Assembly: GCA_964016885.1 (NCBI GenBank)
Contig: OZ024741.1
Coordinates: 143,530,001 to 143,594,000, forward strand
Length of the DNA stretch: 64,000 bases
Direction: 5' to 3'
Source: Eledone cirrhosa
Lineage: Eukaryota
Shown: positions 16,797 through 49,849 of the stretch, piece after piece
How the letters are laid out: each line of letters opens with the position of its first letter
Position numbering within the stretch: the first letter of the stretch is position 1
Notes under the pieces: generated by a model
Database searches by the model: none
What the model was told of the DNA's origin: nothing
What the model saw: the letters and a program-made list of their open reading frames with translations, nothing else
Program-made: the position numbers and the translations under genes

Positions 16797-19002
16797 GTAT
16801 CCTTTTTGCCTTCGCTTACACCTCGTGTACGTTTGTATATTTTGTTCTTTGCTGTAAATATCTTTGGAAAGGAATGAGTGTGTGAAAGAGTGAAATGAGA
16901 CAGACGGACCATTTCTACCGGCAACATTTAACATTTCATTTGTTCTTGTAGATTTATTTTTGTTATTTAACCCCTAAGTCAATCGTAACTATTCTGTGTA
17001 TGTCGTTCAGGATCTGACTACATGTATTCTTTTACGATGTTGTAGGCTTTGATTTTAGGGATATTTGACTGCTATGTCTAGCGCGTTAAGTAGTAGTAAT
17101 TGTTATTTAGCACTAGGTCATTCCTCATTGAGCGTGCAGACCTTGCGACCTAAAAGGTTCCAGCCGTGACCGTTGCGTGTATTTTATTCTTGCTGTATAT
17201 TGGACCACATCATTTATCCAATATATCCCTCCTTATGTAATAGTATAGAGAATGATTTAACCGTGATTTGGTTGTTATTTCTAGCTAGTAGTAATTTTTA
17301 TAAACCCTGAATCAAGTGAAAGATGTTCCAACCGTCTGTATTTTTTAAGAGAGTGTATGTAGGACTAGATCATTAACCAACGTATATGCTTTAACTTAAG
17401 ATGGTATTTAAGTAAGATTTTACTGCTATTTCTAACAGGTTGAGAAGTATATCTTATATAACTCCAGGTGAGCCCTGTTTGTGCAGGCATACCGTATAAG
17501 CAACTACGTTTACAGCAGTGAACATTCCATCTTTTATTAAGACACACACACTTATATATATATATATCACCATAAAGTACCTAGAAAGCATCCATCCTAG
17601 ACGTGAATGCAGTTTTAAATGAACTTAAGATCGCAGACTAAATTATCCGTTGCCCTTCTGTTTGTGACTTGAGGGAGATATTTAGGCTGATGTTTGTAAT
17701 AGGTCAGTTGCTGGCTAGAACAAGACTAACTGTTTATTTCTAGTGACTACTACAACACAATTTCTTTACTACTAAACACTCAGAAAGTATTGAGCGAGCA
17801 CCCCTTTTCCTAACCATCTTCATCACTGCTTTAACCATTATTGTATATTAACTCCTGGAACTCTTACCTCTTGTCAAAATACAAACATACATACATGTGT
17901 TTGTGTGTGTATACATATTTAATCAACGAATAAGGGATAAGATGAAGCTGAGTGATTATATAAATATACAAACACGCACACTCACATTTGAAAATTATGA
18001 ACACTGCATAAATCTCCTGAAATTTCACCCCAGTCTTTAAAAATAGAAAATTGATACTATGAGTGGGAAAGGCTAGATGGCCACGGCTTACAATGAGCAG
18101 CCAAGTTGAAACGAAGTTATTTTTTTATTGAACAAATTGGTTTCGAATATATATTCCCTTTTGTTTGTGTTTATATATATATATATATATATATATATAA
18201 GCATGGTTTTCCGAACTCGACCAATTTTACAACATTCCTGATGATTTCATACGAATGAAACAGTCCTAGTTCTGTAGAAGTAATTATTATATATGTATAT
18301 ACATTATGTGTGCATGTTTAACCCCCAGCTTAGCTCTGTTCGAACAGAGATCGTTGATCAAAGATGTTCCAGTTATGACCATCCCATCTAGGATTATATT
18401 ATGTCCTCTTCCCGCTTTCTCCACTGAAAGACTGCAGGGTTTAAGTACCTATTAGTGGTAGGTCAAGTGACCGGTTTGGTTATGTGTATATAGGCACCTT
18501 GGTGTAGTAGTAAGCATGAAAATGTGGATTTGAGTCCGCGGATACGAATGTTCATTTTTCCGTATTTTAGACTATTTTTCTTTAGTAAAAGAAAAAATGC
18601 TTCTAACTTTCACACACACACACACACACAAATATAATTGTGTGTGCGTTGGGTTTAAATGTAGTTTGAAATTGTAAAGTAATAGATGGCTATAGTTTAA
18701 ATAGAATAGAAAATAATACATCATTAATCGTTAATGGCAGATTCTGTTTTCAAACACTCCACTTGGCCTATTCAGATCTCTGAATTTTTATTTATTTATT
18801 TTCTGTTAAGCTAATACAATTATGTTTGACACTCTAAAAATTAATCACGTATCCTCCAACAAATGATTAGGGGTGGAGTGTATGACAAATGCATTAACTG
18901 CTAACTATTCAATAGTCCCCCTCTATGAAAGATTGGGGAGTTGCCACCAAGTCTCAAGTCAACTCTGATTAAAGAAGCTTATAATCATTTCATTTCAATC
19001 TG

Positions 19003-19270
19003 TCATCATCATCATCACCGTTTTACGTCCGTTCTTCCACGCTAGCATGGGTTAGACGGGTTGTCCTGTTGTGGGCAGTGTCTGGTCGGCTGACCATGCC
19101 TTGCTCATACAGGAACTGATCTGGCTTGATTTCTACAGCTGGATGCCCTTCCTAACACCAACCTCATTTACAGTGAGTGCTGGGTGCTTTTTCGTGGCGC
19201 CTACACGTCCACTTTACAGTGTGGGCTGGGTGCTTTTTTGCCGTGGCACCTCCACGACCACCTTGCGGTG
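19003..19270 (-). mobile_element. SINE 3' part with RTE-type tail
   Basis: (CAT)n + ttttacgtccg... + ctggcttgatttctacagctggatgcccttcctaacaccaacctcattt, shared with 61709-62055. Confidence 0.8.
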
Positions 19271-47579: not shown

Positions 47580-47930
47580 GTTGTTGGCACATAGAAAATT
47601 TGCCAAACAAAGGGTCAAAAGGACTCTTCAGTTACGCCAAAGACATGACAACCTCTCTAGTGTTGTTAACACGATAAAACATAGGCAATACACTCTGTAA
47701 ATTGGGTGGTGGCAGCTGTAGAAAACTTGCTAAACAGAGGATTGAGAGGACTCTTCAGTTGTGCCAAAGGTATGACAACCTTCCTAATGCTGGAGCCACA
47801 AAATGCACCAGTACACTCTGTGGAATGGTTCATGATAGGAAGGGCATCCAGCTGTAGAAAACTTGCTAAACAGAGGCTCATGAGGACTCATGAGTTGTGC
47901 CAAAGACATGACTTCCACTCTAGAGCTTGT
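47580..47930 (+). repeat. Tandem degenerate SINE-body fragments (~3 copies)
   Basis: Repeated 'tagaaaa(c/t)ttgc(t/c)aaaca...ggactc...gttgtgccaaag.catgac'; related fragments at 5550-5800, 45720-46050 and 52300-52550. Confidence 0.6.
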
Positions 47931-49849
47931 GATACCCAATTGCCTGAAACTGCCTTTGGTCCTGCAATACAAACCTTTATACCTATCCAAATATCATAAT
48001 TTTATGTAAGAACCTTTGTCAAATTATGTTCCAAACACAAGATAAATGAGAAAATTATTTTACTATATCCTTCTAAATTCTTGATTTTTCAGAATTATAG
48101 ATGGGATTTCATTAGAAATATGGTAATGGGGTTGGATGTGTCTGCTATACAGTGTATCAACATTTCTGTATCACTTCATCCTTAGTGATCCAGCGCCTGC
48201 AAACATATCTGAGAATCTCATTCTTTGTTGCCACCTATCAAGAGTATTTCCCTCCTATTTGAAATGTGTCATCCATTCAAGTACCCATATGCATACATGT
48301 GTATATATATATATATATATATATATATATATATATATATATATACACATACATATACAAGTCCTGCCTCTCACATTAACTACCCAATCAGTCTCAGCTT
48401 GTTTAAAGCTCCACTTCTATTTAAATCCATTGTCTCTGTTCCCTGTTTATTTACTGTAAACTCTGTTAACCATGGGCACCATCTACATGAGAAGCAATAG
48501 TTAAAGCCAGACATGTTACACATCTGCTCTCTCACAGAGCTGGTGCTATGGTAAAAAGTGTCAAATTTGTTGGAAGATTTTAATTGAAATAGGAACCCAT
48601 TAAAATGGGTGGTTTGGGGTGAGTTAATATCAAAAGGGTTGGAAATATAATGGAAATAATTGTTCTCAGGAAAAACGAATTTTAGCCAATGACCCAATGA
48701 CTGATATCAAATTTCTTTATTGTTAACCCCATCCTTAGAGATGAAACATTTGTTAGCATTTGACAGGCTCATTAGAGAACAAAATGTCTAGTGATGCTTA
48801 GTTACTGCCCTTTACATTTTGAATTCAAATCCTAAGTCAGTTTTCTTTCATTCTTTTGTGGTTTTGAAACATTTTCTAGTAGTTGGCAGAATCATTAGTC
48901 TAATGATGTTTAGTTACAGCTTATGTTTTGAGTTCAAATTCTGTCAAAGTCAATGATTTCTTTCATCCTTATTGTGTTAAATACTGTGGTGGCTATAATC
49001 AACCCTTTACTCTACAAAAAATTAAAATTCTTACTTTGTGTTTATGTAAAAAAAAAATCAATATTTACATCTGTTTGAATCAGTCTGAGCATCGATCATG
49101 ATGTCTCTTTCATAGTGTACATCATACTAGATGGAATTTTATCTGAAAACCTATATTTCTGTAAACTAAGTGCAGTAAATCTCTTAATCTACTGTCTTCT
49201 GATGTTTGTCACACATACATGAGTACATAAGCCTGGAAACTTGAATTGTATTAATATTCACTCAGACATTTTAATTCTTTATCTTTGCTCACTTATTCCT
49301 GAGAAGGTCGTCCTCAGACACTCCTTCCAGAGCGACCTATCAGAAGCAACTATTTCTAAATAATCTGGTTAGATCCCCCAAGTGAGACCGAGCTCATGAA
49401 TGTTATTCAATCATCTTACTTGTGGTCTTCTTCTGGATCTCCTGTTGGTTGGCTTTGCCTGTAAACTCTGTCCAGTGATTCTTTCCTTAAACATTCTGAC
49501 CACCTGTCCATAACACCAGAGTAGTGATCTCAGTGTAAAGTAATAGCTCTACCTGGAGCTAAATACATTCCTCCAGAGGCTTTTCAGAGGAATCCCATTT
49601 CTGTTGCTTGTATTCACGATCGTATTCTTTCAGAATTACATCAAGGGTACATGTGTCTGTAGAATGCTTGACCACTTACACATTTTAATGAGCAGGTTTT
49701 TTAACTAACAACTGGAACACATCGTTGAAATTGAACAAGGTCCATTTTCACACTATTTTGTGTCTATCAGTGTACATTAATGTAATGGTGTTGTGTGTGT
49801 CTAACCTGTTGCATCTTAATATTTGTTTGACTTTAACAAAGCTTCCCAG

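Follow-up and report, generated by a model that had tools for sequence, protein, structure and literature searches.

A first intron with U12-type splice signals and a large TA-repeat fill in the LSM12 gene of the octopod Eledone cirrhosa

Which spliceosome removes the first intron of LSM12 in the octopod Eledone cirrhosa, and does the TA-rich repeat that makes up most of this intron do anything for the gene? We addressed these questions by a computational analysis of a 64,000-nucleotide stretch of DNA (GenBank assembly GCA_964016885.1, contig OZ024741.1, positions 143,530,001 to 143,594,000 of the forward strand), which we call the window and number from its first letter. A first-pass annotation, made from the letters of the window, had proposed an LSM12 gene that is interrupted at 16797–49849 by a minor (U12-type) intron filled to about 60% with TA satellite. 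The reading that we favor, with a probability of about 0.88, is that intron 1 of this single-copy octopod gene, with its perfect U12-type donor and a branch site close to consensus, is a predicted substrate of the minor (U11/U12) spliceosome, that it is likely the ortholog of a known fly and vertebrate intron, and that its repeat fill is most likely neutral.

LSM12 gene model and the junction of exons 1 and 2

The window contains a complete LSM12 gene of five coding exons on the + strand (16661–57961), with a coding sequence of 603 nt that translates into 200 amino acids. Splice sites were read directly from the letters, and the exons were joined by their coordinates in a script. The gene was compared with "protein LSM12 homolog" of Octopus sinensis (P0001) and with two further homologs, P0002 and P0003, the three coming from cephalopod or mollusc-like relatives. 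A protein search with P0001 yielded three proteins out of 107 candidates, all of them from close relatives. The parts of the gene that concern us first are as follows.

16661..16796, + strand: LSM12 coding exon 1, with an ATG at 16661 and a second in-frame ATG at 16679; assigned by Pfam and by identity to P0001
16797..49849, + strand: intron 1, phase 1, GT-AG, with U12-type signals; 33,053 bases as assembled
49850..49983, + strand: LSM12 exon 2, Pfam LSM12_LSM profile positions 39–60; aligned to P0001, P0002 and P0003
52924..53033, + strand: LSM12 exon 3, first part of the AD domain (Pfam AD, E 2.7e-7)
54998..55127, + strand: LSM12 exon 4, second part of the AD domain (Pfam AD, E 6.5e-12)
57869..57961, + strand: last LSM12 coding exon (exon 5), with a TAA stop at its end

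Translated from 16661, exon 1 gives 45 amino acids that are 100% identical to P0001, and several residues of the later exons differ from it; the 200-residue model is colinear over its full length with both P0001 (204 residues) and P0002 (203 residues). Against the Pfam family LSM12_LSM (PF21166), exon 1 covers profile positions 1–36 (E 1.4e-15) and exon 2 covers positions 39–60 (E 2.1e-4, which alone is under the gathering score). This N-terminal LSM12-type LSM domain is followed, on exons 3 and 4, by the anticodon-binding AD domain (PF09793). Judged by its colinearity with an NCBI-named homolog and by the presence of both domains, the gene is LSM12; a search of the PDB gave no match. Exons 1 and 2 abut inside one LSM12_LSM domain, and no coding exon is absent between them. 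When the whole 3.0-Gb genome was searched with P0001, the only four matches were exons 1–4 of this locus, indicating a single LSM12 gene without a second copy or retrocopy.

Exon 1 ends in ...ATAATTA before the donor at 16797. Joining 16796 to 49850 gives the sequence ...GTKLLIIKSNATNG..., in which the intron has phase 1 and the junction codon is A/AA, encoding lysine (here and below, a slash marks the splice junction). The correct phase claimed for the join is borne out. P0001, predicted by a gene model that lies on a contig of 105.9 Mb, reads ...LLIIK/SNAT... across the same junction, as in our model. The earlier expectation that gene predictors would miss or split this gene is contradicted in this relative, as the O. 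sinensis model joins both exons exactly as proposed. P0002 was derived from seven contigs, the longest of 4,090 nt, and P0003 from a single contig of 1,118 nt; each holds a full open reading frame (ORF) with lysine at the junction, so that this residue is kept in all three relatives. The contigs of P0002 and P0003 are too short for a gene with four introns of at least 2 kb and therefore probably represent spliced transcripts.

In E. cirrhosa, DNA-type contigs (841 nt; three runs of one sample) traverse 49636–50100, from the intron into exon 2, with 0 differences, which confirms the sequence of both branch site and acceptor. These runs may derive from the same sample as the assembly, and they are uninformative on splicing. 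From protein colinearity and the short contigs of the relatives, we predict that the junction 16796^49850 is used in this species.

U12-type splice signals and the minor spliceosome

The splice signals of intron 1 and the remaining three introns of the gene are given below.

16797..16805, + strand: U12-type 5′ splice site GTATCCTTT, a match to RTATCCTTT
49830..49837, + strand: branch-site motif ACTTTAAC, matching TCCTTAAC at six of eight positions and including CTTTAAC at 49831–49837
49848..49849, + strand: 3′ splice site AG, read from the sequence, with which the DNA contigs agree
Intron 2, 2,940 bases, phase 0: donor GTAAAC and a T-rich 3′ end, ...TTTCAG
Intron 3, 1,964 bases, phase 2: donor GTTTGT and a T-rich 3′ end, ...TTTCAG
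Intron 4, 2,741 bases, phase 0: donor GTAAGT and the 3′ end ...ACCAG

By these sequences, introns 2–4 look like ordinary U2-type introns. The donor of intron 1 stands in the context TTA/GTATCCTTT (in a longer form, TTA/GTATCCTTTTTG; the letters from 16797 are GTATCCTTTT). RTATCCTTT is the consensus of U12-type donors and agrees with the published human and mouse LSM12 entries. It occurs a single time in the window when both strands are counted (128 kb of two-strand sequence), precisely at the boundary of exon 1; in shuffled sequence its mean is 1.77 per window. Given one occurrence and a boundary fixed independently by protein homology, the probability that the two coincide by chance is about 1e-5 (an order of magnitude, from hand arithmetic).

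At the other end, the intron closes with GACTTTAACAAAGCTTCCCAG/, also tabulated as TTTGACTTTAACAAAGCTTCCCAG/. The branch adenosine would be 49835 or 49836, 13–14 nt upstream of the intron end, the second of these lying 13 nt before the last base. U12-type branch sites are usually about 10–15 nt from the 3′ splice site, and 13 nt is a typical spacing. On its + strand, the window has no exact TCCTTAAC. With the sole RTATCCTTT at the donor, CTTTAAC near the acceptor and the Pfam domains on either side, an LSM12 intron with U12-type signals at 16797–49849 was found as had been proposed.

The E. cirrhosa genome encodes the U11, U12 and U6atac small nuclear RNAs (snRNAs) of the minor spliceosome, all above the Rfam cut-off: U12 as one gene of full length (128.2 bits), U11 as two matches (96.4 and 94.2 bits) and U6atac as 15 matches (93.6 bits for the best). 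The U12 gene carries GTAAGGAAAA, in the context ...ATGAGTAAGGAAAATAACG..., and pairing by hand indicates that the C-to-T change in the branch motif of intron 1 keeps a G-U pair with this snRNA. The start of the U11 gene, TAAAAGGG, and the U6atac sequence AAGGAGAGA are both complementary to TCCTTTT of the donor. These signals together predict that removal of intron 1 depends on U12.

A U12-type intron in LSM12 has been described in other animals. Table 2 of Lin et al. 2010 (PMC2831892) gives the Drosophila gene CG15735/LSM12 (Lsm12a) a GT-AG U12 intron, number 1 of 4, that is U12-type in human too, in agreement with the Drosophila precedent named by the first-pass annotation. Human LSM12 is also among the U12 intron-containing genes of Chang et al. 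2007 (PMC1874599). The supplement of Olthof et al. 2019 (BMC Genomics, PMC6717393) lists the human LSM12 minor intron with the 5′ splice site TAAGTATCCTTC, the branch-point sequence TTTTCCTTAACT and a length of 2,529 bp, and the mouse intron with the branch-point sequence TTGTCCTTAACT and a length of 2,091 bp. As reported for a minor-splicing mutant (RNA 2025, PMC12084885), lsm12a was among 14 minor introns measured, all of which were more retained; lsm12a spliced mRNA was quantified as well, and the level of Lsm12a protein was lower in the mutant.

The human and mouse introns are like the octopus intron in gene family, GT-AG subtype and a TTAAC-type branch site, and the donors are nearly the same (TAA/GTATCCTTC in the mammals, TTA/GTATCCTTT in the octopus). 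They differ in that the mammalian branch sites are perfect TCCTTAAC, whereas the octopus has ACTTTAAC, and in length, the 33,053 bases of the octopus intron as assembled being 13–16 times the mammalian values. The exon-end letters (TAA/ and TTA/) are only compatible with a shared codon position. The Drosophila Lsm12a intron resembles that of the octopus in being a GT-AG U12-type intron, in being intron 1 of 4 (by ordinal and count) and in its off-consensus branch site. It differs in having experimental support, through retention and reduced mRNA and protein in the minor-splicing mutant. We regard intron 1 as likely the octopod ortholog of the known fly and vertebrate LSM12 minor intron, with a shared position predicted from these features. 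O. sinensis was part of a comparison of minor-intron conservation in which molluscs showed a relative enrichment of minor introns (Larue & Roy 2023, PMC10639083).

Several observations weigh against the assignment of intron 1 to the minor spliceosome. Its branch site ACTTTAAC is off TCCTTAAC at two of eight positions. The orthologous Drosophila Lsm12a intron was classed as "minor-like" in a 2022 preprint on account of a divergent branch site, which is found here also (bioRxiv 10.1101/2022.10.12.511939). Pyrimidines make up 64% of the 25 nt before the AG in intron 1, as against 68%, 84% and 76% in introns 2–4, and the longest pyrimidine run near the 3′ end is 6 nt, as against 6, 8 and 6; the description of the intron as having no polypyrimidine tract holds only weakly, 64% being hardly different from the 68% of intron 2. 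For the four donors and the four 3′ regions we computed the energies of duplexes formed with U11, U6atac and U12 as encoded in this genome; these energies fail to set intron 1 apart from introns 2–4 (with U11, for example, −6.9 for the donor of intron 1 and −7.1 for that of intron 4) and were dropped as a classifier. Finally, P0001, which joins the exons as we propose, is a computed gene model and not a transcript.

Three of these points, namely the match of only six in eight at the branch site, the pyrimidine content that resembles intron 2 and the fly classification, would also suit a hybrid or "minor-like" intron that is removed in practice by the major (U2-type) spliceosome, or by either, and whose U12-like donor is a relic. 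We consider this improbable. The donor TTA/GTATCC is poor when set against the U2-type consensus, with A for G at −1 and T, C and C at +4 to +6, and the 13 nt between the branch A and the AG are the spacing of a U12-type intron. Moreover, the genome retains the U11, U12 and U6atac genes, and the fly intron, minor-like as it is, is still retained in transcripts when minor splicing is impaired (PMC12084885). Removal by the minor spliceosome is thus the reading that we keep for intron 1.

Length and repeat content of intron 1, and what the array may do

Most of intron 1 consists of a simple repeat with later insertions, and an assembly gap lies inside it.

20668..44122, no strand assigned: imperfect (TA)n array with TG interruptions, in blocks 20668–24148, 24348–27927, 30676–34297 and 34691–44122
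24149..24347, no strand assigned: short interspersed nuclear element (SINE)-like high-copy insert of ~200 bp, which splits the array
27928..30675, − strand: truncated long interspersed nuclear element (LINE) insert, with a reverse-transcriptase ORF at 28633–29667 (RVT_1, E 4.9e-31) and 38 non-self blastn matches
33839..34038, no strand assigned: 200-N assembly gap inside the TA array
34226..34760, no strand assigned: ~466-bp satellite, about one unit, which adjoins the gap; direct copies of a 60-nt end flank the unit

The extent of the array was measured in three ways. AT-rich blocks, in which GC stays below 20%, add up to 20,115 bases and make up 60.9% of intron 1, in line with the fill of about 60% given by the first-pass annotation; strict (TA) runs of at least four units make up 46.7%; and Tandem Repeats Finder reports a single period-2 array at 20709–44111 with 74% matches. 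The unit is about (TA)5–6 followed by TG. In the 9.4-kb block 34760–44122, C accounts for 0.1% of the bases of the + strand, and ATGTA occurs 548 times against 9 for TACAT. Over 30676–44122 the array shows a strong strand bias: the strand that is sense for the gene contains G and hardly any C (GC skew about 1.0).

Copy numbers of repeats were counted by running blastn locally against about 464 kb of this genome. The query 24125–24375, which spans the SINE-like insert, has 54 non-self copies in 19 sources, many of them 97–100% identical. The mobile elements named in the first-pass annotation were thus recovered in part, as one LINE and one SINE-like insert. A Helitron, named with them, stays unconfirmed: the non-array parts hold no ORF of at least 90 amino acids that resembles Rep/helicase, although a non-autonomous element is possible, the ORFs having had no family scan and Helitron termini not having been sought. 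Other non-array parts (19000–19400, 44200–45230 and 46616–46950) are largely repeats as well, being elements of 330–540 bp with copies that are 91–99% identical, one of which lies in the window at 61734–62056. Close to the acceptor, at 49259–49332, 49444–49517 and 49592–49665, the summed depth of DNA contigs ranges from hundreds to ~21,000, against 3–6 in neighbouring unique sequence, indicating repeats of very high copy number no more than 350 nt away from the 3′ splice site.

Beside the 200-N gap, the satellite unit (34039–34760) has a core of TA runs between 26-nt inverted arms. Tandem copies of the satellite, 100% identical and spaced at 466 bp, are found 70–80 kb upstream of the window, and another 200-N gap lies near them at about −73 kb, so that both gaps of the region adjoin the satellite.

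How unusual is such an array in this genome? Short TA-rich arrays are common, being present in 8 of 20 arbitrary 10-kb samples, where they take up 3.7% of the bases with a longest of 1,036 bases; in the 100-kb flanks of the window they fill 8.7% and 7.2%, the longest being 2.6 kb. The array of intron 1 is exceptional in size and ordinary in kind. Further TA-rich arrays lie at 59840–64000, 1.9 kb past the LSM12 stop codon, with ACGTATG-type interruptions; past the end of the window such blocks, the largest of 2.4 kb, extend for about another 9 kb.

As the 200-N gap falls within the intron, the length of 33 kb is provisional. Long TA arrays are difficult to sequence and assemble, and the size and layout of the intron could be partly an artefact, with the array collapsed, inflated or mis-scaffolded at the gap and a true length far from 33 kb. 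The position of the gap at 33839–34038 within the array favors this explanation, as does its right edge, where an inverted-repeat-flanked TA run is joined to a satellite unit that recurs in tandem and with 100% identity 70–80 kb upstream, near the other gap. On the other hand, exons 1 and 2 are unique in the genome and lie in the correct order and on the correct strand of one 416-Mb contig, with exons 3–5 next, and several kilobases of array on either side of the gap are continuous with unique sequence. We judge an artefact of this kind unlikely, while giving it some weight; the identity of intron 1 is in any case independent of its length.

The intron had been called unusual for its length. 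At 33,053 bases as assembled it is indeed long, but the two parts of the human table that we compared (PMC6717393, file 8, parts 8–9) contain six longer minor introns in 222 rows: DIAPH2 (100,276 bp), SLC9A9 (94,503), EIF4G3 (86,961), RALGAPA2 (60,680), CACNA1A (50,719) and CACNA1H (40,935). Although their genes differ from LSM12, these show that U12-type introns of tens of kilobases are spliced. On this comparison, a minor intron of 33 kb belongs to the upper tail of lengths, yet has precedent. Across species, the lengths of minor and major introns scale together (Larue & Roy 2023, PMC10639083). We met no description of a minor intron filled to about 60% by one dinucleotide array, though no literature search was aimed there.

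Concerning the role of the array, we propose that a (TA)n/TG array of ~23 kb expanded the intron and that the LINE, the SINE-like element and the 466-bp satellite unit would have split it later. The fill would then be neutral bulk that adds length and is tolerated by the splicing machinery, with no regulatory use. The array holds none of the 16 AATAAA/ATTAAA hexamers of the intron and one of its seven strong-donor-like GTRAGT hexamers, which makes it silent for RNA-processing signals.

We also predicted the folding of the RNA. Six 1-kb samples of sense array RNA came out 93–98% paired, at −0.46 to −0.56 kcal/mol per nt, and five samples of non-array intron RNA 60–65% paired, at −0.21 to −0.31; antisense RNA of the 31–44 kb part gave −0.20 to −0.31 kcal/mol per nt. 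Two features do not sit easily with neutrality. One is size: the array spans 23 kb, its largest block being 9.4 kb, whereas nothing longer than 2.6 kb was seen in 400 kb sampled elsewhere in this genome. The other is asymmetry: the sense strand is nearly free of C, and in the 31–44 kb part the sense RNA is predicted to be about twice as stable as the antisense RNA.

These features are what one would expect if the array were functional, with RNA fold-back bringing the splice sites effectively closer to each other, or with the array slowing transcription or splicing and so setting LSM12 output. The high predicted pairing relative to the non-array samples fits such a role; so do the interruptions of the sense strand by TG rather than CA, by which G-U pairing is kept in the transcript while the antisense folds much worse, and a length ~10 times that of any other array in 400 kb of this genome. 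We nevertheless find a functional array very improbable. The mammalian orthologs work with introns of 2–2.5 kb (PMC6717393). Similar arrays lie outside genes, at 59840–64000 in the same window and in its flanks, and the strand orientation of the array is essentially one event, carrying no statistical weight. In the predicted folds, the pairs are local (median spans of 133–402 nt within the 1-kb pieces) and would compact the array, the splice sites not being paired together. The folding prediction thus points to a potential for local compaction and says nothing on the joining of splice sites or on output.

A more specific version can be imagined. The self-complementary (UA)n/UG RNA, 20 kb or more in length, might form long A-U/G-U hairpins that draw the U12-type splice sites together. 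RNA editing being very active in this animal, it might also be a large double-stranded RNA substrate, whose folding or editing would set the rate at which a rate-limiting intron is removed, and the scarcity of C on the sense strand might have been selected for pairing. We regard this as speculative and a long shot. Neutral bulk within a conserved minor intron is most likely what the array represents.

Neighbouring features and significance

An uninterrupted frame of 402 amino acids at 13846–15054 on the − strand (ATG near 15011) is arranged head to head with LSM12, about 1.6 kb away from the LSM12 start codon, and has one RNA recognition motif (RRM_1, E 1.1e-16) that we take to resemble those of DAZ/Boule-type proteins. 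A bidirectional promoter region may serve both this gene and LSM12. Some 600 nt upstream of the ATG of the RRM gene, at 15606–15614 on the − strand, there is an exact TTCCTTAAC, followed 15 nt later by CAC. At least two occurrences of TCCTTAAC were found in 12 of 100 shuffles, and the motif at 15606–15614 could be there by chance or could mark the 3′ end of an AT-AC-type intron in the 5′ untranslated region. Upstream of the gene pair are two LINE reverse-transcriptase fragments, at 211–1756 on the + strand (RVT_1, E 2.7e-16) and at 8192–9803 on the − strand (E 1.4e-23).

The LSM12 minor intron is already known in flies and vertebrates, and the octopus intron, very likely U12-type, probably adds to that conserved cluster. 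What sets it apart is its size and dinucleotide fill, a curiosity of this genome. Intron 1 of octopod LSM12 would contribute a lophotrochozoan point to the cluster and aid the correct annotation of this gene. If its splicing is confirmed, it would mean that the minor spliceosome copes with tens of kilobases of strongly self-pairing AU-rich RNA, a modest point rather than a new kind of system.

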